Below are positions 23,994 through 51,959 of a stretch of 64,000 nucleotides of DNA, piece by piece. This DNA is from Promethearchaeota archaeon. GTDB lineage: Archaea; Asgardarchaeota; Lokiarchaeia; Sigyniarchaeales; SOKP01. The stretch spans positions 384,001 through 448,000 of the forward strand of contig JAHPZE010000001.1 in assembly GCA_019058365.1 (NCBI GenBank). The letters run 5' to 3'. Made by a program: the position numbers and the translations under genes. Each line of letters starts with the position of its first letter. The stretch's first letter is position 1. Below the pieces are notes generated by a model, which made no database searches, was not told the origin of the DNA, and worked only from the letters and a program-made list of their open reading frames with translations.

Positions 23994-24236
23994 ATGAGAC
24001 CCCCTATTTGTAGAATATGCGATAAGAATCTAGTAGATAAGGATGATGGAGGTTTGATATATTTTAGAAAACGCCCTTCTGATAAAGAATGGGAAAAGAG
24101 GATGGAAGGAATTGGAGGTGTAGGACATCCACCCTATGCAGAATGGTTCTGTAAAAAGCATTATGATAGAGCAAAGGAGCTAAAACATTTACCTATCAAT
24201 GAAGCATTAAAAATTTTAAGATCTGAGGGGACCTAG
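23994..24236 (+). CDS. Small hypothetical Zn-finger-like protein
   Basis: CRIC...GHPPYAEWFCKKH; 80 aa; slight 3' overlap with the convergent mvhD. Confidence 0.55.
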   Translation: MRPPICRICDKNLVDKDDGGLIYFRKRPSDKEWEKRMEGIGGVGHPPYAEWFCKKHYDRAKELKHLPINEALKILRSEGT

Positions 24237-24650
24237 TTCCTTAATCTGGTGAGTAAATTCTGTAATTACCTCAGCAAACCGTTTTCCTTCAGATGCGCTA
24301 ACCCATTCTAACCGTACCCGCTTAGGATCCACTCCCAATTGTTTAATTAATATAGAATGTAACCTTTCGAATCTTTCTTGAGTGTATTCATTTCCGGTAA
24401 TATAATGACAATCACCTATATGACATCCACTTATAAGGACACCATCAGCACCATTCTTCAATGCCTTTAATACAAATGCAGGGTCTACTCTTCCAGAGCA
24501 CATTACCCTTATAATTCTAATATTTGGGGGATATTGAAACCGAGAAACTCCTGCTAGATCTGCTCCTGCATAGCTACACCAATTGCAACAAAAGACTAAA
24601 ATGTGGGGTTCAAATTCTTCTTTTTCTGCTTTTTTCTTCGACTTTGACAT
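24216..24650 (-). CDS. mvhD: MvhD [2Fe-2S] subunit (Cys form)
   Basis: FCCNWCSYAGAD, MCSGRVD, GCHIGDCHY, WVSASEG. ATG at 24650 preferred because GGTGAT lies upstream as RBS. Confidence 0.93.
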   Translation of the reverse strand: MSKSKKKAEKEEFEPHILVFCCNWCSYAGADLAGVSRFQYPPNIRIIRVMCSGRVDPAFVLKALKNGADGVLISGCHIGDCHYITGNEYTQERFERLHSILIKQLGVDPKRVRLEWVSASEGKRFAEVITEFTHQIKELGPLRS

Positions 24651-24659
24651 GATTATCAC

Positions 24660-27600
24660 CTACAAACCGTTCTTAACTTCCTCTTTTTCTAATAAATAAG
24701 AATCAATCATTGTAGAGATCTGGTCAAAATCATAATGTTTAACCATTATAGCTCCAACAGGGCAAGTAGCTGCACATGTTCCACAACCTTTGCAGACTGC
24801 AGCGTTGATATTAGATTTTCTGACTTTGATACTTACATCCTCAAATTCTTTGGTTATTTCTATAAGTTCTATTGCTTTATACGGACACACGTCTTCACAT
24901 TTCCCACATCCTATACATTTTTCTTCTGAAACCTCTGCTACCAATCCAGAAGTAGTAATTTTATCCGCACTTAAGAATCTACTTGCTCTTCCTGCAGCAC
25001 CATTAGCTTGCGAAATTGAATCCTGTATATTTTTTGGCCATTGAGCACAGCCACATAAGAAAATTCCATCTGTAGCAAAATCTAAGGGTCTCAATTTAAC
25101 ATGTGCTTCTAAAAAGAATCCATTCTTGTCTAATGGAACTTTCAACATCATTGCTAATTCTTTTAAGTTATCTGCTGGAATCATAGGTGTCGAAAGTATT
25201 ATCAAATCTGTTTCAAATTCGACGGTATCTTTTAAATTAGTATCAAATACTTTTATCTGATATTTTTCAGGACTTCCTTTTTTCTTTTGCACTTCTGGTA
25301 AATTATCTAAGTCATATCTCAAAAAAATTGCGTCTTTTCTGCGTTCACGATAATATTCTTCGAATTGTTTTTTGGCCATTTGTAAATCTCTATAAATAAC
25401 TACAAGTTCTAAATCAGGCTTCAATTCTTTTAATATTCTAACATTTTTGACGGAATTAGCACAACAAATATTGGAACAGTAAGTTATTCCCTCATTTTGT
25501 CTTGCATTTACACATAAAATTAATGTTATTCGAGTAATTTGATCTAACCAAGATTTATCTTTATTTTGTAATTTCTGCTCTAACTCCAATTGAGTCATTA
25601 CATTTTTATTTTTATCGTGGTATTCAAAAAGTCCTGATGGCTTAAATTCTTGGCCGCCAGTAGCAACTATTATCGTCCCAATTTTTAACTCATGGGTTTT
25701 GTTATTTGAATCGTTTATCACTACATCATAATTTCCGACATAACCTTTAATATTCTTAATTCCACCATTTAAGAATACCTGAATGTTACTACTTTTCTCT
25801 ATCTTTTCTTTTGTTTCATTTAATAATTCTAATGCATTTTTATGAACTGGATATAATACATTTAGAAATCTTAAGTTTCCACCTAACTCATTTTTTTTTT
25901 CTATAAGAAAAGTTTTAAATCCTTGATTAGCTATATTTAAAGCTGCAGTCATACCTGAAATACCTCCTCCAATAATTAAAGCTGTATGGGTAATATCTAT
26001 TTTATCTTCTTTCTGGGGCTTTAGTAATTTAGACTTTGCGACATGCATTCTAATTAAATCTATGGCTTTATGAGTAGCAGCATCTTTTTCTTTCATATGA
26101 ACCCATGAACATTGATCTCGAATATTAACAAGCTCAAAAAGATATTTATTTAACCCGGCTTCTTGACATGTTTCTTGAAATAAGCTTTCATGTGTTCTAG
26201 GAGTACAAGATGCCACAATAAATCTATTTAAATCATGTTCAGCAATTAATTCTTTAATCCTAATTTGAGAGTCAGATGAACATGAATATAAATTTGCTTC
26301 ACATACCACTACGTTTGGGAGGTTTTTAACATATTCTACAACTCGAGGAACATCTACATAATTTCCAATATTGATTCCACAATGACAAACCATTACCCCT
26401 ATTCTTGGTTTATCTGTAATTTTAACCACTTTTTCTGCTATATCGAATGTTTTTTCTTTCACTTGGGTAAATTTAACAGAGTTTAATAAATCAGCGATTT
26501 GTGCTGCTACTCCACTAGCGTCAGCAACCGTCTCTGGAATATCCATTGGTCCTTGACAGAATCCACATAAGAAAATCCCATTTCTAGTAGATTTTAATTT
26601 ATCAAAATACGATTTTTCTTTGAAAAAGTTGTATGTATCTAATTCAATTCCTAAAGTTTTTCCTATTTCTTTAACTCCTTTTGATGGAACTAAAGGGGAT
26701 GCCAGAACAACCAAATTAGCACGAAAATCCTTGAATTCACCAGTCTTCAAATCCTCATAATGTATAATTAAATCTTTAGTTTCGGGATCTTCTTCAATTG
26801 TACTTATTTTTGATTGAAAATATTTTACTCCATATTCTTTTTGAGCTCTTTGTGTGAATTCATAAAAATTTTTACCATATGCGCGAATATCATGCCGAAA
26901 TACATAACATTCTGAATTGTCCGAATGTTCTTGGGTAATTATTGCTTGTTTTGCTGTATAAGTGCAGCAAACACTAGAGCAAAAAGGGACATTTTCATGA
27001 AGATCTCTTGAACCTGCACATTGAATAAAAGCAATAACTTCAGGTTCTTCATCATCACTTAATCGCTTGACATGTCCACCAAATGGTCCAGATGCGCATA
27101 ATATCCTTTCATATTCAAGAGCACTAACAACATTTTCGTATCTATACCCCCATCTTGAAGTTAATTTTTCAGCAGGCATTTCAAAACCTGTTGCTACCAC
27201 TACAGCTCCAACTTTAATTTCAAATTCTTCAGGTTTCTGTTCAAAATCTATTGCCTCAGCAGGACAAGCCTTTTTACATATTTGGCATACTCCCTTCGTT
27301 AAATATAAACACATCTCGGAATCAATTAAATAAATAGGAGGTACTGCTTGTGGAAAAGGAATAAATACTGATTTTCTTTTACCAATGTTCATTTCAAAAG
27401 GATTTGGAGCCATTATTTTGGGGCATTTAGCAGCACATTCTCCACATCCCTTACATTTAGTTTCATCAATATATCGAGGTTTTTTCAGGATTTTCGCAGT
27501 AAAATTACCAGGTTCACCGTCTACTTGAAGAACTTCATGATATGTCATTAATTCAACATTAGGATTACGAAATACTTCAACCATTTTTGGAGCTAATATA

Positions 27601-27767
27601 CATAAGGAACAATCTAATGTTGGAAAAGTCTTGTCCAGTTGAGACATTCTACCTCCAATTGAAGGTGATTTCTCAACTAGGTATACTTTAAATCCTAATT
27701 CTGTGAGATCAAGAGAAATTTGTATTCCCGCTATACCTCCTCCAATTACTAACACAGAACCCTCCAT
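24660..27767 (-). CDS. hdrA: Large HdrA-like flavoprotein (two FAD-binding motifs, ~1030 aa)
   Basis: GGGIAG and GGGISG; DKTFPTLDCSLC; CSSVCC; CHCGINIG; ASCTPRTHE; EAHVKLRP; C-terminal 2x[4Fe-4S]. Confidence 0.93.
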   Translation of the reverse strand: MEGSVLVIGGGIAGIQISLDLTELGFKVYLVEKSPSIGGRMSQLDKTFPTLDCSLCILAPKMVEVFRNPNVELMTYHEVLQVDGEPGNFTAKILKKPRYIDETKCKGCGECAAKCPKIMAPNPFEMNIGKRKSVFIPFPQAVPPIYLIDSEMCLYLTKGVCQICKKACPAEAIDFEQKPEEFEIKVGAVVVATGFEMPAEKLTSRWGYRYENVVSALEYERILCASGPFGGHVKRLSDDEEPEVIAFIQCAGSRDLHENVPFCSSVCCTYTAKQAIITQEHSDNSECYVFRHDIRAYGKNFYEFTQRAQKEYGVKYFQSKISTIEEDPETKDLIIHYEDLKTGEFKDFRANLVVLASPLVPSKGVKEIGKTLGIELDTYNFFKEKSYFDKLKSTRNGIFLCGFCQGPMDIPETVADASGVAAQIADLLNSVKFTQVKEKTFDIAEKVVKITDKPRIGVMVCHCGINIGNYVDVPRVVEYVKNLPNVVVCEANLYSCSSDSQIRIKELIAEHDLNRFIVASCTPRTHESLFQETCQEAGLNKYLFELVNIRDQCSWVHMKEKDAATHKAIDLIRMHVAKSKLLKPQKEDKIDITHTALIIGGGISGMTAALNIANQGFKTFLIEKKNELGGNLRFLNVLYPVHKNALELLNETKEKIEKSSNIQVFLNGGIKNIKGYVGNYDVVINDSNNKTHELKIGTIIVATGGQEFKPSGLFEYHDKNKNVMTQLELEQKLQNKDKSWLDQITRITLILCVNARQNEGITYCSNICCANSVKNVRILKELKPDLELVVIYRDLQMAKKQFEEYYRERRKDAIFLRYDLDNLPEVQKKKGSPEKYQIKVFDTNLKDTVEFETDLIILSTPMIPADNLKELAMMLKVPLDKNGFFLEAHVKLRPLDFATDGIFLCGCAQWPKNIQDSISQANGAAGRASRFLSADKITTSGLVAEVSEEKCIGCGKCEDVCPYKAIELIEITKEFEDVSIKVRKSNINAAVCKGCGTCAATCPVGAIMVKHYDFDQISTMIDSYLLEKEEVKNGL

Positions 27768-29047
27768 TATTTTTCTTCCTCCGCCGTTGGATTAGAATCA
27801 ACGACATAAATTAAATTTACTAAGAATTCAGAAAAATCGACTATTTCTATTGAGGAAATATCTTCATAATCATTTTGCAAGCACGAAAAATGCATTTTGC
27901 ACTTAGGACAAGACGTAACCATTATTTTTCCCACGTCTTTTGCTTCTAAGAGCCTTTTATATCGCAATGCTTTTGATCGATCATTACAATTCATCCAAGA
28001 ACTTACTCCACAACACAGAGCATCTTTCTTGTTATGTGCCATTTCATTAAACTTATATCCTAATTTTTTCAATTGAGAAAAAATTTCACGTACATTTTCT
28101 ATTATCTGACTATCTTTAGGTAAAAATCGACTTAGACGACATGGATCATGATAAGTAAATGGGATAGGTTCTTCTTTTTGAGAAGGATTCTTAAACTCAA
28201 TCTTATTTGCTTTCCAATTTTCATAAATATACTCTATTAAATGTTTAACAATGAATTTTTTATTAAAATCGTCAAAAAGATTTTGATAATCTACTTTAAA
28301 TGTCCTATAACATTCAGCACAGGCAGTTATAATTGTTTTAACTCCCGTTTCTTCAATTCTTTTAATATTCTTCTTTGCTAAATTGATAAATTCTTTGAGT
28401 TTTCCTTGACCCCAATAGAGATCATGGCCACAACAGATTTCATCTTGAAGAACTACTACAGGTTCTTTTTCAATCTGGCATAATATTTTTAAAGTGCTTT
28501 CTGCTATAGAATTGGAATTTTCAAACTCAAAATTAAAAAAGGGTAAACACCCAACATAATACATAATATTTCCATGTTCTGAAATTTCACATCCCTTAGG
28601 AACCCATTCAAGAGATCTTTCTGGCTTTATATCGGAAGCACTCATTATTTCTGAGATAGTTGTATATACCCCCTTATGAGCAATATACTCATCCGGGTTT
28701 TGATTATATGATTCTCGCATTTTATATTTAGCCATTCTTACGATGTCTGCGAAATTTATTCCCTCAGGACAGTTTTGAAGACAAGCATTGCAAGTTAAAC
28801 AATCCCATAAAATTCCACTCTCAATAACTTTATCCTCAAAACCCTCTAGAATCATTTCGATTATTCTGCTCGGTTCAAAAGTTTGAACTTTACTAAGTTG
28901 ACAAACACCACTGCATCGAACACATTGATAACATCGATATAATAATTTTCTTATATCTGGTTCATAAATTTTTTCAAGATATGAATCAATATTATCCTTA
29001 GGTTCTTCTGGATCTTCCGCTTTTGAAGTCTCTGTAATATTATTCAC
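27767..29047 (-). CDS. HdrD/HdrC-B-like Fe-S oxidoreductase (ferredoxin plus two CCG domains)
   Basis: CYQCVRCSGVC, CLTCNACLQNC, CCG twice, TACAEC, HDPCRL, SCPKC. Confidence 0.9.
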   Translation of the reverse strand: MNNITETSKAEDPEEPKDNIDSYLEKIYEPDIRKLLYRCYQCVRCSGVCQLSKVQTFEPSRIIEMILEGFEDKVIESGILWDCLTCNACLQNCPEGINFADIVRMAKYKMRESYNQNPDEYIAHKGVYTTISEIMSASDIKPERSLEWVPKGCEISEHGNIMYYVGCLPFFNFEFENSNSIAESTLKILCQIEKEPVVVLQDEICCGHDLYWGQGKLKEFINLAKKNIKRIEETGVKTIITACAECYRTFKVDYQNLFDDFNKKFIVKHLIEYIYENWKANKIEFKNPSQKEEPIPFTYHDPCRLSRFLPKDSQIIENVREIFSQLKKLGYKFNEMAHNKKDALCCGVSSWMNCNDRSKALRYKRLLEAKDVGKIMVTSCPKCKMHFSCLQNDYEDISSIEIVDFSEFLVNLIYVVDSNPTAEEEK

Positions 29048-29198
29048 TTTCTCTGGTTATTTCAAATTTTAATAATTTGAACCAATAATGATTAGAAAAA
29101 AAATAGAAAGAATTTATTTTTTCTGATTAGGTTTCATAACTCTCTTGTCAAATGAGGAATTGCATTGATGATAAAGCAAGATTCTTCTTTATTTGAAT

Positions 29199-32100
29199 TT
29201 ACATAGCAAGTGTCCTAATCATTGCATTAATTTGCTCAAAATCGTAATGTTTTATTGAAATTGCCCCAACTGGACAATTAACAGCACAAGTTCCACAGCC
29301 TTTACATAATCCTGAATTAACAGTAGACTTCTTTATCGGAAGGCTCACTTCTTCAAACTTCTTCAGCACTTCTACAATTTCTATTGCGTTATATGAACAT
29401 ACTTCCTCGCATGTCCCACAACCGATACATATCTCTTTTTCTACTTCCGCAATTAATCCAGATGTGGTAATTTCTTCTGCGCTTAAAAATCTGCATGCTC
29501 TTCCTGCTGCGCCATTTGCCTGTGATATTGAGTCTTGGATGTTTTTAGGCCAATGAGCACATCCACATAAGAAAATTCCATCAGTAGCAAAATCTAATGG
29601 TCTTAATTTAACATGAGCCTCCAAAAAAAAACCATTTTTGTCTAATGGAACTTTTAGTTTCTGTGCTAATTCATCTAAGTTATCAGCTGGAACCATTGGT
29701 GTTGATAGTACTATTAAATCCGTGTTAAAATTAATATTTTCTTGTAGATTTGTGTCAAAGACTTTTATTTCAAATTTCTCTCTTCCTCCATTTATATCTC
29801 TAATGACAGGGGGATTGTCTAAATCATATCTCAAAAATATAGCATCCTTTCTTCTTTCACGATAATATCTTTCAAATTCTTTCTTTGCCATTTGAAGATC
29901 TCTATAAAGCACTATTAGCTTTAGATCCTGCTTTATTTCCTTAAGGATATTAATATTTTTTATAGCAGTTTCACAACAAATATTTGAGCAGTAAGTTATC
30001 CCTTTTTCTTGTCTTGCATTAACGCATAATAATGTTGTAATATGATTAAGTTTATCTAACCATGATTGATCTTCATCCTTTAATTTCTGTTCTAATTGTA
30101 ATTGTGTAATTACATTATGGTTCGTATAAGTATATTCAAAAAATTCATTAGGTTTTAACTCTTTTCCACCAGTGGCGACAATAATAGTGCCAATTTTTAA
30201 TTCATGAACATTGCTATCTGAATCGATAACTGAAGCATTATAGTTGCCAAGATATCCATAAATATCTTTCAATTCAGAATTTAAAAAGACTTGAATGTTC
30301 TTATTTTGTGTAACTTTTTCTATAGTTTCATTTAATAAGATTGAAGCATCCTCCTGGGTAGGATATAACATATTCAAATACTTTAAATTGCCACCTAAGT
30401 ATCTGTCTTTTTCTACGAGATAAACTTTAAATCCTTGATTAGCTATACTCAATGCGGCTGTCATTCCAGATATACCTCCACCAATTATCAATGCAGTTTG
30501 AGTAATTTTTAATTTCTCTTCTTTTTGCGATTTTAATAATCTTGATTTAGCAACTCCCATTCTTATTAAATCAATTGCTTTTTTCGTAGCAAGCTCCTTC
30601 TCTTTCATATGTACCCATGAACATTGATCACGGATATTTACCATGTCAAAAAGATACTTGTTTAGACCTGCTTCTTGACATGTCTCTTGGAATAATGATT
30701 CATGGGTTCGTGGGGTACAAGACGCGACAATAAATCGATTTAAATTATATTCACCTATTACTTCTTTAATTCGTTCTTGCGAATCAGAACTACAAGAATA
30801 AAGATTATCTTCACAAAAAACTACATTAGGCAATGTTTTTATGTGTTCTATAACTTGAGGAATCTCAATATATTTTCCAATATTAATACCACAATGACAG
30901 ATGAGGACCCCAATTCTAGGTATATCTGTTTCTTTAACTGCCTTTTCTGGTATCCCTACAATTTTTTCTTGTGTCTCAGTAAACTTAAAAGAATTAAGTA
31001 AAGTTGCTACTTGTGAAGCTACCCCACTGGAATCAGCTACCGTTTCTGGTATATCCATTGGACCTTGGCAAAAACCAGCTAAAAAAATGCCTTCTTTAGA
31101 GGATAAAGATTTACTGTAATATGATTTCTCCTGAAAAAAATTATATTCATCCAACTCGATATTTAAAACTTGAGCTAATTCTCTAGTTCCAGCCGAAGGG
31201 ACTAGGGGTGTGGCCAATACTACTAAATTTGCCTTAAAATCCTTAAATTTACCAATTTTTAGATCTTCATAATGAATTACTAAATCATTTGTTTCTGGAT
31301 CTTCTATTATTCTGCTAATTTTAGTTTGGAAATATTTTACCCCATATTCTGACTGAGCTCGCTGGGTAAACTCGTAGAAGTTTTTTCCATAAGCCCTAAC
31401 ATCATGCCTAAATACAAAACACTGTGAGTTTTCAGAATGTTCCTTAGTTATGATTGCTTCTTTAGCTGTATACATGCAACAAACTGAAGAACAATACGGA
31501 ACACCTTCACGTAAATCCCTTGAACCCGCGCATTGAATAAATGCTATTTTTTCTGGCTCTTTCGCATCGCTAGGTCTTACAATATGCCCCTGAAATGGTC
31601 CAGAAGCTGATAATATTCGCTCATATTCCAAAGCACTTACCACATTTTTATAATTATAACCCCATCTTGAGGTTAACTCTTCTCCTAACACATCATATCC
31701 AGTAGCAACAACAATAGCACCAACGTTCAATTTGATTTCTTGAGGTTTCTGTTCATAATCTATGGCTTCTGCCTTACAAACTTTCTCACAGACCCCGCAT
31801 ACTCCTTTAGTTAATTTTAAACACAATTCAGAGTCAATTAAGTATACCGGAGGTACTGCTTGAGGAAATGGAATGTAGATTGACTTTCTTTTACCAAGAT
31901 TCATATCAAAGATGTTAGGGGTTTCAATCTTTGGACATTTAGCAGCACAGTCACCACAGCCTTTACATTTAGTCTCATCAATATAACGAGGTTTCTTAAG
32001 TACTGTAACATCAAAATTACTTGCGTTTCCAGAAACTTTTTGAACTTCATGATAAGTCATTAATTCAATGTTAGGATTTCTAAATACTTCCACCATTTTA

Positions 32101-32279
32101 GGCGCAAGAATACATAAACTACAATCGTTTGTAGGAAAAGTTTTATCAAGTTGAGCCATTCTTCCTCCAATCGATGGGGTTTTTTCTACTAGGTAAACTT
32201 TAAAGCCTAATTCAGTTAAGTCTAAAGAAGTTTGGATCCCTGCTATTCCACCACCAATAACTAACACTGATCCTTCCAC
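29199..32279 (-). CDS. hdrA: Large HdrA-like flavoprotein (two FAD-binding motifs)
   Basis: Same motif set as, and close paralogue of, 24660-27767. Confidence 0.93.
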   Translation of the reverse strand: MEGSVLVIGGGIAGIQTSLDLTELGFKVYLVEKTPSIGGRMAQLDKTFPTNDCSLCILAPKMVEVFRNPNIELMTYHEVQKVSGNASNFDVTVLKKPRYIDETKCKGCGDCAAKCPKIETPNIFDMNLGKRKSIYIPFPQAVPPVYLIDSELCLKLTKGVCGVCEKVCKAEAIDYEQKPQEIKLNVGAIVVATGYDVLGEELTSRWGYNYKNVVSALEYERILSASGPFQGHIVRPSDAKEPEKIAFIQCAGSRDLREGVPYCSSVCCMYTAKEAIITKEHSENSQCFVFRHDVRAYGKNFYEFTQRAQSEYGVKYFQTKISRIIEDPETNDLVIHYEDLKIGKFKDFKANLVVLATPLVPSAGTRELAQVLNIELDEYNFFQEKSYYSKSLSSKEGIFLAGFCQGPMDIPETVADSSGVASQVATLLNSFKFTETQEKIVGIPEKAVKETDIPRIGVLICHCGINIGKYIEIPQVIEHIKTLPNVVFCEDNLYSCSSDSQERIKEVIGEYNLNRFIVASCTPRTHESLFQETCQEAGLNKYLFDMVNIRDQCSWVHMKEKELATKKAIDLIRMGVAKSRLLKSQKEEKLKITQTALIIGGGISGMTAALSIANQGFKVYLVEKDRYLGGNLKYLNMLYPTQEDASILLNETIEKVTQNKNIQVFLNSELKDIYGYLGNYNASVIDSDSNVHELKIGTIIVATGGKELKPNEFFEYTYTNHNVITQLQLEQKLKDEDQSWLDKLNHITTLLCVNARQEKGITYCSNICCETAIKNINILKEIKQDLKLIVLYRDLQMAKKEFERYYRERRKDAIFLRYDLDNPPVIRDINGGREKFEIKVFDTNLQENINFNTDLIVLSTPMVPADNLDELAQKLKVPLDKNGFFLEAHVKLRPLDFATDGIFLCGCAHWPKNIQDSISQANGAAGRACRFLSAEEITTSGLIAEVEKEICIGCGTCEEVCSYNAIEIVEVLKKFEEVSLPIKKSTVNSGLCKGCGTCAVNCPVGAISIKHYDFEQINAMIRTLAM

Positions 32280-43156: not shown

Positions 43157-43588
43157 TTAAATAACTTGCAGTGGTCCTAGTTTTTTAATTTCATTAGTAA
43201 ATTCAGTGATGACTTCAGCAAATCGCTTCCCTTCAGATGCACTTACCCATTCAAGTCTAAATCTTTTTTCAAGATTGAATATTTTTAATATTTCCTTAAA
43301 ATGTTCAAATCTATCCCTAGCAAACTCATTTCCTTTTAAGTAATGACAGTCACCGATATGACATCCTGTCACAATGACTCCATCAATACCATCTTTAAAA
43401 GCCTCCAAAATAAAAGCGGGATCTACTCTACCAGAGCACATCACTCTTACTATCCGAATAGTAGCAGGGTACTGAAAACGAGATACGCCAGCTAAATCTG
43501 CCCCAGCATAACTACACCAATTACAACAAAAACATAATATATTTGGATGGAAATCTTTTTTATTTACTTTCTTTTTTGACTTAGACAT
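43157..43588 (-). CDS. mvhD: MvhD [2Fe-2S] subunit (Cys form)
   Basis: FCCNWCSYAGAD, MCSGRVD, GCHIGDCHY, WVSASEG. Confidence 0.93.
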   Translation of the reverse strand: MSKSKKKVNKKDFHPNILCFCCNWCSYAGADLAGVSRFQYPATIRIVRVMCSGRVDPAFILEAFKDGIDGVIVTGCHIGDCHYLKGNEFARDRFEHFKEILKIFNLEKRFRLEWVSASEGKRFAEVITEFTNEIKKLGPLQVI

Positions 43589-43606
43589 AAGTTAATACCT
43601 CATAAT

Positions 43607-46600
43607 TTAAGTTTGGACAAGAAGTGCAGAAATCATAGCGTGAATTTGCTCAAAACCAAAATGTTTAATAACTATTGTTGAATTAGGACATTGTGCGCCA
43701 CATGTACCACATCCCTTACAAAGCGCAGGATTTATATGAGATTTTTTATTAGTCATTGTAAAATCTTCGAACGTTCTTTCTTTTTCTATTAATTCTATAG
43801 CATTAAATTGACAGACTTCTACACAGCTTCCACAGCCAATGCAATTTTCTTCTATTACAACCGCTACAAGTCCAGATGTTACAAGCTTTTCAGCACTTAA
43901 AATTTTAACTGCTTGAGCAGCAGCTCCATTGGATTGTGCAATTGATTCTCGAAGATCTTTAGGTGAATGTGCACTTCCACATAAATATATACCATCTGTA
44001 GCAAAATCAATTGGTCTCAATTTAACATGTGCTTCCAAAAAGAATTTGTCCTCATTAAGTGGCACTTTTAACATTTTTGCTAGCTCTTCATTTTCTTTTA
44101 TAGGTGCTACGAGACCAGTACTTAGTACGACTAAATCAGGATTTATTTCAAGGGCTCCTAAATCTGGATTATTGATTTTAATTTTTAATCTTTTATTTTT
44201 AATAGTTAATTCTGGAGGTTTAGATTCATCAAATCTAAGAAATATAACCTTTTTATCTCGTGCTAAGTTATAATATTTTTCTTTAAAACCATATGTTCGG
44301 ATATCACGATATAGAATTACTATTTCTAAATTAGGATTGATTTCTTTTGCTTTTAGCGCATTTTTAATAGCTTCTGAACAACAGATTCTACTACAATAAG
44401 GGTGATCTTCATTTCTAGATCCAACGCATTGAATCATAGCTATTGATTTCAATCCTTTTATTTTATCCGTAGTAAAAAGATCTTTTTCAAATTCGGTTTG
44501 GGATATAATTCTTTGATCTTTCCCGAAACCATATTCTTTTGGTTGATATTCTTTTGCCCCTGTGGCTACAATAATTATTCCATGGTCTAGATCAACACTT
44601 TTACTATTATTTCCATAACTTATGTTTGTGGAAAAATTCCCTATATATCCTGAAATTGAATTAATTTGAGCATTTTTAAATACGTGAATGAATTGATTAT
44701 TTTCAACTTTTTTAATTAGGTTTCCAAGATACTCCTGAATATCATCATTTTCAAGGGTTTGATAAATATTTTTGGCAAATCCACCTAGAGAATCTTCCTT
44801 TTCAATTAAAAAAACTTCATAACCTTGAGAAGCCAGATTTAATGCTGCTGACATTCCAGATACACCCCCTCCTATGATGAGACCCTTACTTATTACAGTA
44901 ATTTCTTGTTCCTGCAACGGGATTAATTGGCTAGCCTTTGCTATTGACATACGCAATAAATCTTTTGATTTTGCTGTAGCTTTTTCAGGTTCATGCATAT
45001 GAACCCATGAACATTGATCTCGAATATTTACCATTTCAAAAAGATATTTATTCAAACCAGCTTCCCTAATTGTTGCTTGAAATAATGGTTCATGTGTTCT
45101 TGGAGTACATGAGGCAACAATAACTCTATTAAGTTGATTTTTTTCAATTTTTTCTTTAATATTTGTTTGGGTATCTGCTGAACAAGTATACAAATTATGT
45201 TCAGCATAAACAACATTGGGCAATGTTTTAACGTATTCAACTACATTAGGAACATCAACAACTCCACCAATATTTATCCCGCAATGGCATATAAATACCC
45301 CTATTCGCGGGTGTTGACCACTTACATCTAATTCTTCGGGAAGTTCTTTCTTAGAGACTAATTTATTTCTTGCTTCTGATAGAAGAACATTTACATATCC
45401 AGCAGCAGCACTAGCTTCAATAACGGTTTCTGGAATATCTTTTGGTGTTGCGAAAGACCCACAAACATAAATTCCAGGTCTTGAAGTCTCTACTGGGTTA
45501 AAGGTTCCAGTTTTACAAAACCCATATTCATTTAACTGGATATTTAATTTCTGTGCTAATTCTTTTGCTTTTTGATTAGGTTGCATTCCAACGGAAAGGA
45601 CGACTAGATTAAAAATTTCTTTAACAATTTTTCCATTTCCTGTTTCATAATAAACCTTTAAATCTTTAGAGTCCGGAATTTCTTTAATAGAAGAAATTCT
45701 GCGTCTGATATATCTTATTCCATACTCATTCTTCGCTCGTTCAATATATTTATCAAAATCTTTACCATATGCTCTGATATCCATTGTAAAAATTGTTGGT
45801 TCTATAATATTCATGTGCTCTTTTGCTATTACTGCTTCTTTTGTTGTATACATGCAACACACAGAAGAGCAGTAATCAATTCTATGCTTTCTATCTCTTG
45901 AACCTATACAATGTAAAAAAGCAATTTTTTTGGGGATAATCCCATCAGAAGGGCGAATTATTAAACCAGAATGTGGTCCACTAGCACTGAGTATACGTTC
46001 AAATTCAATACTAGTAATCACATTTAAATGCTTACCGTAACCCAATTCCGTTAAAGGAGTAGGATCATATTCATCAAATCCAATTGCTAATACTACAGCT
46101 CCTACATTAAGGTTAATTAAACTATCTTGAAGTTCATAATTTATAGCTTTTGCTTTACATATTCCTTTACAAATACCACAACCTATACATTTTTGTTTAT
46201 TAATTGAGAAAACTAATGGAACTGCTTGAGGAAATTTCACAGAAATTGCTGCTTTGTTAGAAAGCTTTTCATTAAAAAAATCAATAGCCTCTATAGGACA
46301 TTGTTGAGCACACAAACCGCACCCTGTACATTTATTCTGATCCAAACGAAGGGTTGTTTGAGTTAAATGAACATTAAAATTTCCTGGAACACCTTCAATT
46401 TTTTCAATTGAGGAATTAATTAAAATATCTATATTTTCATGTCGACCAGTTTGTACTAATTTTGGGGCAAGAATACATATTGCACAGTCATTAGTTGGAA
46501 ATGTTTTATCCAATTGAGACATAGTTCCTCCAATACTGGTTGTAGATTCTGCTAGATATACTTTATAGCCTGAATCTGCTAAATCTATAGAAGTTTGAAT

Positions 46601-46648
46601 ACCAGCAATTCCACCACCAATAACTAGAACAGCTCCGACTTTCTCCAT
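43607..46648 (-). CDS. hdrA: Large HdrA-like flavoprotein (two FAD-binding motifs)
   Basis: GGGIAG and GGGVSG, DKTFPTNDCAIC, CSSVCC, CHCG, ASCTPRTHE, CSRICC, ferredoxin motifs. Confidence 0.93.
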   Translation of the reverse strand: MEKVGAVLVIGGGIAGIQTSIDLADSGYKVYLAESTTSIGGTMSQLDKTFPTNDCAICILAPKLVQTGRHENIDILINSSIEKIEGVPGNFNVHLTQTTLRLDQNKCTGCGLCAQQCPIEAIDFFNEKLSNKAAISVKFPQAVPLVFSINKQKCIGCGICKGICKAKAINYELQDSLINLNVGAVVLAIGFDEYDPTPLTELGYGKHLNVITSIEFERILSASGPHSGLIIRPSDGIIPKKIAFLHCIGSRDRKHRIDYCSSVCCMYTTKEAVIAKEHMNIIEPTIFTMDIRAYGKDFDKYIERAKNEYGIRYIRRRISSIKEIPDSKDLKVYYETGNGKIVKEIFNLVVLSVGMQPNQKAKELAQKLNIQLNEYGFCKTGTFNPVETSRPGIYVCGSFATPKDIPETVIEASAAAGYVNVLLSEARNKLVSKKELPEELDVSGQHPRIGVFICHCGINIGGVVDVPNVVEYVKTLPNVVYAEHNLYTCSADTQTNIKEKIEKNQLNRVIVASCTPRTHEPLFQATIREAGLNKYLFEMVNIRDQCSWVHMHEPEKATAKSKDLLRMSIAKASQLIPLQEQEITVISKGLIIGGGVSGMSAALNLASQGYEVFLIEKEDSLGGFAKNIYQTLENDDIQEYLGNLIKKVENNQFIHVFKNAQINSISGYIGNFSTNISYGNNSKSVDLDHGIIIVATGAKEYQPKEYGFGKDQRIISQTEFEKDLFTTDKIKGLKSIAMIQCVGSRNEDHPYCSRICCSEAIKNALKAKEINPNLEIVILYRDIRTYGFKEKYYNLARDKKVIFLRFDESKPPELTIKNKRLKIKINNPDLGALEINPDLVVLSTGLVAPIKENEELAKMLKVPLNEDKFFLEAHVKLRPIDFATDGIYLCGSAHSPKDLRESIAQSNGAAAQAVKILSAEKLVTSGLVAVVIEENCIGCGSCVEVCQFNAIELIEKERTFEDFTMTNKKSHINPALCKGCGTCGAQCPNSTIVIKHFGFEQIHAMISALLVQT

Positions 46649-49494: not shown

Positions 49495-49562
49495 ACCCCT
49501 TCCCTTGCAAGGTGAGTTCTCTTATAACTAATATTTTTTTATAAGAGTCATTCTACAGGGGT
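49495..49562 (-). ncRNA. Candidate SECIS-like stem-loop overlapping the mvhD(Sec) stop codon
   Basis: mRNA: ACCCCU-GUAGA-AUGA-CUCUUAUAA-[AAAAAUAUUAG]-UUAUAAGAG-AACUCA-CCUUGCAAGG-GA-AGGGGU-UUUU. Perfect 9-bp upper helix right after AUGA, A-rich apical loop, 6-bp lower helix. The 3' GA of the core is out of canonical register. Confidence 0.55.
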
Positions 49563-50009
49563 AGTTATAACTTGTTTTGTTTCAATTTTTGACTCTTCTT
49601 CTACTAAGTTAAGTGGATTTGGTCCAGCTTTGCTTACTTTTTTATAAGCGTCCTCGACAGATTCGACAAATTTCCCAGCATCTCCTCCACTTACCCAATA
49701 CATGTTTATTCTCTGATTTCCGAAACCTCTTGATTCTAAGATTCTGTTTGCTAATTCTACATGTCTTTCGGCTGTGAAATTACCATTTTTAAATTGACAT
49801 TCATTGGGTCGTCAGCCTACAATCATGACACCATCAGCTCCCGAGCGAATACTGTAGAGAATATGCTTAACATCAACTCTACCAGTACATTTTACTTTGA
49901 TTATTTTTACTGCAGGTGTATACTTCAATCGAGAAACTCCCGCTAAATCAGCAGCACTATAACCTCATTTTAAACATGCAAAAATAATCATTTTATACCT
50001 ATTTTTCAT
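49548..50009 (-). CDS. mvhD: MvhD/VhuD selenoprotein, 153 aa, Sec at codons 15 and 66
   Basis: Absent from the track. MKNRYKMIIFACLK-U-GYSAADLAGVSRLKY...VKCTGRVD...GADGVMIVG-U-RPNECQF...YWVSGGDAGKF. TGA at 49965-49967 and 49812-49814 align to CNWC and GCH cysteines; GGAGGTG RBS. Confidence 0.92.
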
Positions 50010-50015
50010 ACCTGT

Positions 50016-51959
50016 TTAAACACCTCCGAGAAGACCGTCAATTTCAGCAAATAATTGATGATCTCGATAATATCTGATATCAATTGCTTGAGTAGGACAA
50101 CATGTAGCACAAATACCGCATCCGTCACAATTTGTCTCATCAATAAATGCACCGATATCCTTCTCAATTCTAATGGCGTTTTTGGGACACTCTTTTTCGC
50201 ATCGTCCACATGAAATACAGAATTCGCTGTTCACTTCAGCAGTAATTAGTTCTATATCGATTTGTCCTGGTGCTGTTAACTCAGCTGCTTTGCTAGCCGC
50301 TGCCCTCGCTTGAGAAACGGAATAAGAAATATTTTTTGGTCCTTGAGCAAATCCAGCTATAAAAATTCCTTTTGATTTCGTTTCTTGCGGCATGAGTCCG
50401 AAATGGGATTCTGTGAGGAACCCGTATGTATTAGTATCAAGGTTTAGTACTTGTACAATCTGATTAGTACCTTTTGAAGGGAGTGCTGCTGAGGATAATA
50501 CGACTAAATCTGCATCAATTATTACGATCTTATCTGTTAGTGTTGAATAGACGCGAACCTTCACATTTTTAGTTTCAGGATCTTCAGAGATTTCCCCTAC
50601 TTTTCCGCGAATCATTTTAATTCCTACATCTTTAGCTCGTTCATAGTACTCTTCAAATCCTTTTTCGGGAGTTCTTATATCAATATAACAGATTGTAATA
50701 TTCGCATCGGGAAATTCTTCGAGCAATAACCTTCCGTTTTTTAGAGCGAGCATGCAACACACACCACTACAATAAGTTCGTTCATTTTCTCGACTTCCTA
50801 CGCATTGTATAAATACAATTTCTTTTAACTTCTTATTATCAGAAATTCGATGAACATGACCTTCAAGTGGACCATTTGGAGCAAGTATTCGTTCTAACTG
50901 AACTTGAGTTATGACATTCTCAAATTCTCCGTATCCATATTCACCAAAAGGTTCGTAGATATCCCATCCAGTTGCTATAATGATTGTACCAACTTCAATA
51001 TCAACTTCTGTAGGCACTTGACTGAAATCAATGGCATCTAATTCACAGGCATCTACACAGGAAAAACACTCAATACACGCATCCCTGTCGATATCATATA
51101 GAAACGGTACTGCTTGACCAAATGGAATATCAATTGCTTTTCGCGCTCCCAAATGTTCATCAAAATAATTGCTCACATATAAAGGACAAACCTCACTGCA
51201 TGCACCACATCCATTACAGTCGTCCGTCGTATATCGCGGTTTCCTTTCAATAGTTACTTTATAGTTCCCGACATATCCTTCTACTTTTTTTACTTCACTA
51301 TAGGTGACTAATTCAATATTCTCATTTCTATTAACTTCTAACATTTTGGGACCACAAATTCATATAGCACAATCGTCTGTAGGAAAGGTTCTGTCTAACT
51401 GAGACATTCTCCCTCCTATTGTAGTTTTTTGATCAACTAAATATACCTTGATGCCTTGATTCGCAAGATCGAGAGCCGCATTCATACCACAAATCCCAGC
51501 TCCAATAACTAATGAGGCTTTTGTAACTGGAACTGTCTTAATTGGCACTGGCTCTAATCGTTTTACTCTTTCAATTCCACTTTTCACTAAGATTTTTGCC
51601 TTCTCTGTAGCTTCTTCTTTACTATCTGTGCACCATGAACACTGTTCACGAACATTTACCATTTGAAAGTAGTATGGATTTAGGGCAGTTTTAGCTATTG
51701 TCCCCCGATAAATAACCTCATGTGTACGTGGGGTTCAAGCAGATGCTACAATTCGGTCTAGATTTTTTTCTTTAATATCTTTAATAATTTCATTTTGAGC
51801 ATTATCGGTGCATAGAAAAGCATTTTTTTTAGCAATTACGACATCATCAAAAGTCTTACTTACGTATTCTACAAGCTCATCGCAATCTACTTTAGTCCTA
51901 ATATTTACTCCTCATTGACAAGCATAGTATCCAATCCGATGATTTTCATTATTATTCAT
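50016..51959 (-). CDS. hdrA: HdrA selenoprotein, 647 aa, Sec at codons 16, 75 and 200
   Basis: One frame joins the two track ORFs and an untracked 5' part: RIGYYACQ-U-GVNI (51912-51914), VASA-U-TPRTHE (51735-51737), FPTDDCAI-U-ICGPKM (51360-51362). Canonical HdrA length and domain order. Confidence 0.92.

Follow-up and report, generated by a model that had tools for sequence, protein, structure and literature searches.

We analysed a 64,000-nucleotide stretch of DNA (the window) from a Promethearchaeota archaeon whose genome comprises 4.74 Mb in 54 contigs with 29.5% GC. The window very probably holds an intact Lokiarchaeia (Promethearchaeia) hdrA-mvhD selenoprotein pair, as judged by sequence comparison. 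The three UGA codons within the hdrA gene are almost certainly read as selenocysteine (Sec). HdrA with several Sec residues is already known from Lokiarchaeota; it was published in 2016, and orthologues with Sec at positions 16, 75 and 200 were catalogued in 2024. The remaining new element is a structural reading of the conserved N-terminal Sec and Cys residues, which would make the shuttle cluster of this HdrA a multi-selenolate cluster.

The hdrA gene and its neighbours

Translation of the minus strand from 51959 to 50016 gave 647 codons with three in-frame TGA codons and without TAA or TAG (Table 1). This confirms the uninterrupted frame reported in a first-pass annotation of this DNA, which had not given the strand. 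The plus strand was considered as the coding strand and rejected, its translation being full of stops. Calling of open reading frames with table 11 splits the gene into pieces of 100 aa (51360-51662) and 442 aa (50016-51344), the two fragments that the annotation had expected from standard pipelines. The read-through protein matched solved HdrA proteins over its full length (9SFI_A from Methanococcus maripaludis, E 2.5e-199; 5ODC_A, E 1.6e-193), and each TGA aligned with a Cys of solved HdrA or with the X at the Methanococcus Sec site. In this alignment Sec200 corresponds to Cys197 of 5ODC and to the Sec of the Methanococcus CxxU motif, in agreement with the earlier proposal that it is equivalent to the single Sec site of methanococcal HdrA.

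The product has the four-domain layout of HdrA: an N-terminal Fe-S domain, an FAD-binding thioredoxin-reductase domain, and inserted and C-terminal ferredoxin domains (2x[4Fe-4S]). The Cys sets of HdrA are also present (CxC, CxxC at about 197-200, four copies of CxxCxxCxxxC, and CxxxCC). K407 and E356 are retained as the counterparts of K409 and E356 in 5ODC; we take the residues equivalent to Glu356 and Lys409 to have a role at the flavin. A conserved Lys is described as a hallmark in the literature.

Directly downstream, starting 6 nt past the hdrA stop, is an mvhD (vhuD) gene with two Sec codons of its own, followed by a SECIS element; both were absent from the first-pass annotation. Its product matched VhuD of M. 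maripaludis (9SFI_K, E 8.5e-39), with both Sec residues aligned with X positions.

Table 1. Features of the hdrA-mvhD locus and related elements. Locations are positions in the window unless preceded by a contig (C) or locus (L) handle.
Feature	Location	Strand	Remarks
hdrA, 647-aa selenoprotein	50016..51959	minus	ATG at 51959; stop TAA 50016-50018
hdrA Sec16 TGA	51912..51914	minus	YACQ-U-GVNI, second Cys of CxC motif; TGA in 76/76 orthologues
hdrA Cys50 TGC	51810..51812	minus	FL-C-TD; TGA/Sec in 55/76 orthologues; same letters in second sample
hdrA Sec75 TGA	51735..51737	minus	VASA-U-TPRTHE; TGA in 76/76 orthologues
hdrA Sec200 TGA	51360..51362	minus	TDDCAI-U-ICGPK, canonical site, C197xxU200xC202; TGA in 76/76 orthologues
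mvhD/vhuD, 153 aa	49548..50009	minus	stop TGA 49548-49550
mvhD Sec15 TGA	49965-49967	minus	CLK-U-GY
mvhD Sec66 TGA	49812-49814	minus	G-U-RPNEC
lokiSECIS (type I eukaryote-like SECIS)	49517..49551	minus	AUGA, 9-bp stem, 11-nt A-rich loop, AA
FrhB/FdhB-family (F420-binding) protein with ferredoxin domain, 506 aa	47909..49429	minus	kept in 73/80 loci
HdrD-like HdrC/HdrB fusion (ferredoxin and two CCG domains), 425 aa	46648..47925	minus	kept in 62/80 loci
Cys-only fused double HdrA, 1013 aa	43607-46648	minus	homologues in about 50/80 related loci
Cys-only MvhD	43157-43588	minus	homologues in about 50/80 related loci
In-window HdrA paralogues, Cys-only	43607-46648, 24660-27767, 29199-32279	minus	CHCGINI, ASCTPRTHE and DC(SL/AI)CIL motifs
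SepSecS (SecS)	C34:23408-24565		E 4.7e-114
tRNA-Sec, two introns	C34:23029-23185	+	just upstream of SepSecS, ~4.5 kb from EFSec
TGA-TGA frames	C34:290227-290712 (L124:2228-2713), C34:291995-292501 (L124:3996-4502)	+	SBF/Acr3-like transporter gene adjoins
Hairpin-like inserts in hdrA orthologues	L051:967 (39 nt), L060:8306 (39 nt), L059:8056 (30 nt), L117:8038 (30 nt), L117:8346 (35 nt)

The neighbouring genes point to an F420H2-linked bifurcating or confurcating module, whose partners and substrates are suggested by gene order alone. A likely module would consist of the FrhB-like protein (F420H2 in or out), MvhD, HdrA and the HdrD-like protein, together with ferredoxin. HdrA of methanogens partners HdrBC and Mvh, Vhu or Fdh; the conserved genes alongside this hdrA instead encode an FrhB-like protein, a fusion resembling HdrD and a double HdrA fusion. 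The protein is otherwise collinear over its full length with the Sec-HdrA of M. maripaludis (9SFI; PMC13518236) and with Methanothermococcus HdrA (5ODC), with CxxU or CxxC at 197-200, and the two Sec sites of mvhD are those of M. maripaludis VhuD.

There were about 20 HdrA-like frames in the genome. The Cys motifs of the three paralogues in the window are as the first-pass annotation quoted them, but each of these genes encodes a double HdrA in one fused chain of about 1010-1035 aa, with a permuted motif order, and is not a collinear copy. The three genes (1013-1035 aa) lie in the minus-strand regions 24216-32279 and 43157-46648; two of them are preceded by ~425-aa genes and followed by a Cys-only mvhD. 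Elsewhere in the genome, four more full-length Sec-HdrA genes carry TGA at the positions that correspond to codons 16 and 200. One two-Sec hdrA outside the window, a 678-aa frame at C16:344792-346825 (+), has its own perfect lokiSECIS 14 nt past the stop. No separate vhuD frame was found immediately downstream, in contrast to the published rule that hdrA and vhuD always occur as a pair. For a pair of two-Sec hdrA and two-Sec mvhD genes at C9:28422-30888 (+), a search of the 900 nt past the hdrA stop with both the strict and the relaxed pattern gave no SECIS.

The lokiSECIS and the Sec machinery

The lokiSECIS overlaps the end of mvhD, its AUGA containing the mvhD stop codon, and lies ~2.36 kb from the first UGA of hdrA. 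The folding energy of this region is -16.5 kcal/mol (z -3.1), and the element was found behind 68 of the 76 full-length orthologues. An alignment of 36 copies showed pairing in 94% of cells, compared to 40-55% in slid controls, and a compensatory change in eight of the nine pairs; the loci were chosen by the pattern itself, which biases these pairing figures in favour of the element. The strict pattern had 16 matches genome-wide and 6-8 in shuffled sequences. Because the pattern is weak evidence when taken genome-wide, the case for the lokiSECIS rests on its position, the perfect stem and the covariation among orthologues.

By the published model for Lokiarchaeota, hdrA and mvhD would be carried on one mRNA, and a single SECIS acting with EFSec and Sec-tRNA would recode five UGAs (three in hdrA, two in mvhD) over ~2.36 kb. 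The UGA that ends mvhD may be too near the SECIS for recoding and would act as a stop. If one SECIS serves both genes, hdrA must therefore end in UAA or UAG. The tandem arrangements of Mariotti 2016 (PMC4989117) were described as sharing a single SECIS among up to six UGAs that span about 2 kb, and the Lokiarchaeota HdrA proteins in that work had up to four Sec, at five positions that correspond to conserved Cys and always include ~200. The locus described here is the same in having vhuD directly downstream (6-nt gap, two Sec), a single lokiSECIS after vhuD, an hdrA ending in UAA or UAG, and in-frame UGA confined to conserved Cys positions, with the canonical site at ~200 among them. It differs in its core, AUGA_AA rather than AUGA_GA, and in having three Sec rather than four in hdrA. 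An AUGA_AA core variant for hdrA/frhD is described by Huang 2024 (PMC11227280).

The genome encodes tRNA-Sec, PSTK, SecS, EFSec and SelD, so that each component named for a genome search by the first-pass annotation was located, EFSec and PSTK with scores below their curated cut-offs. The EFSec/SelB candidate, ~5 kb from SecS, scored 240.9 bits (just under the cut-off of 242.25) and the PSTK candidate 150.7 bits (E 8.7e-44; cut-off 290.5); each was the best match. There were two SelD genes, each with one TGA (Sec-SelD). The tRNA-Sec was missed in the genome by ARAGORN, by the Rfam model RF01852 and by a strict pattern. It was recovered by a looser scan for the anticodon arm and was recognised after removal of two introns, one of 34 nt in the D arm and one of 30 nt in the T loop; the spliced form is a 93-nt molecule with the 9/4 fold, called tRNA-SeC(tca) by ARAGORN. 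The initial blanks are thus no evidence of absence, since the gene was later found with two introns. Mariotti 2016 (PMC4989117) gave a T-loop intron only.

Other putative selenoprotein frames were observed in the genome. Two paralogous frames of ~160 aa have adjacent TGA-TGA codons (VHAD-UU-ADV and DSGC-UU-EKV), each followed by a lokiSECIS match. They have no Pfam match, and none of the seven Asgard selenoprotein families of Huang 2024 (PMC11227280), as given in the consulted part of that paper, appears to include them. We regard these frames as of more interest than the finding of the three-Sec hdrA. A short frame with DDDCF-U (C35:296789-297217, +; L125) lies near a SECIS-like hairpin with a GTGA core and one mismatch, and may be a selenoprotein or a chance match.

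Conservation of the UGA codons and variation at position 50

We searched 40 related genomes and GTDB contigs for orthologues, and obtained matches of 74-94% identity, mostly in records titled Promethearchaeota. The closest loci (85-94% identity) were likewise mostly in such records, some carrying other Asgard labels, which places the host in the Lokiarchaeia (Promethearchaeia). The tabulation of TGA that the first-pass annotation had proposed gave a uniform result: all 76 full-length orthologues (75-94% identity) have TGA at codons 16, 75 and 200. Additional TGA codons were present at codon 50 (55 orthologues), codon 301 (three) and codon 614 (one). hdrA ends in TAA in 62 orthologues and in TAG in 13, never in TGA, and one locus ends at a contig end. 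Compared to 17 congeneric orthologues, dN/dS was 0.03-0.12 (about 0.05), alike before and after the last TGA; this is purifying selection, and not the relaxed selection that the annotation had named as evidence against its reading. The extra cysteines it had pointed out are real (C202 in 76/76 orthologues, C110 in 70/76), and C110, C202 and C620 are clade-specific compared to M. maripaludis and Methanothermococcus HdrA. The M. maripaludis protein has one Sec where this protein has three.

Contigs from another sample of the same study were identical over 50617-51748 and 51759-51939, with 0 differences; they span U16, C50 and U200, and U75 lies just 11 nt from a contig end. A contig from a second study spans U200 unchanged, its four differences falling elsewhere.

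There are two alternatives to the reading of these codons as Sec. The TGA codons could be genuine stops, the gene being in decay, or sequencing errors for TGT or TGC, which would be consistent with the two fragments given by standard translation and with the many other HdrA copies in the genome, one of which could be spare. We exclude gene decay and sequence error because 76/76 orthologues keep the three TGA codons and dN/dS is about 0.05 on either side of the last of them; with identical letters in contigs of the other sample and a SECIS present, this explanation is exceedingly improbable. Alternatively, UGA could be read as Cys or Trp, either through reassignment across the genome or through leaky read-through, and homologues do have Cys at the aligned residue. 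However, TGA ends 278 of the 1879 long open frames of the genome, as well as the adjacent mvhD, and because it serves as a normal stop elsewhere, the code is not reassigned. The one tRNA found with a UCA anticodon has the 9/4 fold of tRNA-Sec and is just upstream of SecS, and conserved internal TGA in the HdrA, MvhD and SelD genes examined occurs only at Cys-equivalent sites. Reading as Cys or Trp is therefore very improbable. Insertion of Sec, as proposed in the first-pass annotation, is supported by the machinery, the conserved codons, the purifying selection and the SECIS.

The claim that this is an unusually selenium-rich subunit did not hold within its family. Most orthologues carry four Sec (51 of 76), 21 carry three and four carry five, and the window copy is, on comparison of these sequences, a poorer form of the family. 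The window hdrA, with C50, nests among Sec50 sequences, the smallest well-supported set consisting of 20 U50 sequences and the window gene. In this tree U was coded as C, so the state of codon 50 did not shape the topology, and IQ-TREE gave the same nesting. There were at least seven changes between Sec and Cys at position 50 on the tree. From this placement, the window gene is probably a four-Sec gene that reverted to Cys at codon 50. The same pattern, Sec at 16, 75 and 200 with Cys50, is found in Lokiarchaeia_GCA_014730295_U_6 in the supplement of Huang 2024 (PMC11227280), which writes Sec as X and also lists GCA_013375485_U_2 and GCA_019058425_U_3 with four Sec. Its HdrA FASTA file contains ASAXTPR 55 times, CQXG 131 times, AIXICGP 36 times and FLXTD 16 times. 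In the consulted part of the main text of that paper, we did not find discussion of multi-Sec HdrA or structural mapping of the sites.

The five-Sec orthologues are L058 (codon 614) and L064, L096 and L101 (codon 301), whose additional Sec falls within a CxxCxxC motif of the ferredoxin type. Together with mvhD, this amounts to seven UGAs on one SECIS, compared to the four and six reported in 2016; these cases are rare and each from a single assembly. Hairpin-like inserts of 30-39 nt, absent from the window gene, also interrupt the region coding for the N-terminus in several hdrA orthologues; some of them bring in a stop or shift the frame. These are possibly tRNA-type (bulge-helix-bulge) introns within the mRNA.

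Probable structural placement of the Sec residues

By homology to solved HdrA, the protein is predicted to be a dimeric, FAD-containing, electron-bifurcating or confurcating subunit. Four positions of the N-terminal domain, 14, 16, 50 and 75, hold Cys or Sec throughout the HdrA alignment and are the only ones to do so; 26, 107 and 110 vary. An AlphaFold model of moderate quality (pLDDT 71.9, below 50 in the ferredoxin insert) was used for secondary structure only. In this predicted fold, strands of the N-terminal alpha/beta domain (E9-14, E40-46 and E69-74) lead into C14/U16, C50 and U75, respectively. The matching residues are about Cys11, 13, 46 and 71 in 5ODC numbering; no list of the residues that ligate HA3, the shuttle [4Fe-4S] cluster of the N-terminal domain, was found in the open literature. 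Because these are the sole thiol or selenol positions kept in the domain and are placed at strand ends, we consider C14, U16, C50 and U75 likely to be the ligands of HA3. The proposal of the first-pass annotation that U16 and U75 ligate the N-terminal cluster is thus a reasonable one.

The canonical site differs from these. The first-pass annotation had suggested modelling whether U16, U75 and U200 surround one cluster. U200 is not a simple ligand of the N-terminal cluster within its own chain: in 5ODC it is the partner subunit that contributes the equivalent Cys197 to the binding of this cluster (PMC9012536). In M. maripaludis, Sec at the 197 site forms a selenosulfur Cys-Sec pair, a proposed relay between FAD and the A3 cluster (PMC13518236), and the Cys pair of M. 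marburgensis, between MvhD and FAD, holds a ligand of unknown identity (PMC13580544). In the cryo-EM structures (PMC13518236, PMC13580544) the Cys-Sec or Cys-Cys pair sits between MvhD, FAD and the shuttle cluster. In the protein described here, C197 and U200 would form a redox pair between the [2Fe-2S] cluster of MvhD, FAD and HA3, and U200 could reach HA3 of the partner subunit. Selenium at these positions would tune the potential or speed electron transfer. It is not strictly required, since Cys forms exist for every site.

A different role for U16 and U75, with Sec inserted all the same, would be as free redox-active residues in a selenylsulfide or diselenide relay. Mariotti 2016 (PMC4989117) aligned the Sec sites of HdrA to conserved Cys uninvolved in cluster coordination, and the selenosulfur bond of the canonical Sec197 in M. 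maripaludis (PMC13518236) is a precedent for such a role. The 2016 statement, however, counted four clusters and was made before the 2017 structure; the solved structures show one more cluster in the N-terminal domain, with Cys of that domain as ligands; and 14, 16, 50 and 75 are the only N-terminal Cys or Sec kept throughout. We therefore consider the relay role unlikely, though it keeps some weight, and this concerns the structural part only.

If C14, U16, C50 and U75 are HA3 ligands, selenium would be concentrated on this cluster in the HdrA clade, with U16 and U75 here (two of four ligands), U16, U50 and U75 in most orthologues (three of four), and U200 of the partner subunit in addition. 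We think this concentration fairly probable, with somewhat less assurance than for the ligands themselves. No paper stating a multi-selenolate HA3 cluster was found, subscription literature being outside the scope of the search.

In its biology, the locus repeats the 2016 result that one eukaryote-like SECIS serves several UGAs across two cistrons. Standard gene callers break hdrA into two pieces, both without the N-terminus, and cut mvhD short; as a result, they undercount the capacity of Lokiarchaeia for electron bifurcation. The electron-transfer step of Hdr concerned here is still called unresolved in the structure papers of 2026 (PMC13518236, PMC13580544). If the structural reading is true, it would correct the 2016 reading of the Sec residues as non-ligands, and this HdrA clade would have a naturally occurring Fe-S cluster in which two or three of the ligands are selenolates, in the low-potential branch of electron bifurcation. 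With U16 and U75 fixed and position 50 flipping between Sec and Cys, the family would offer a natural series for the effect of selenium on the potential of the cluster.
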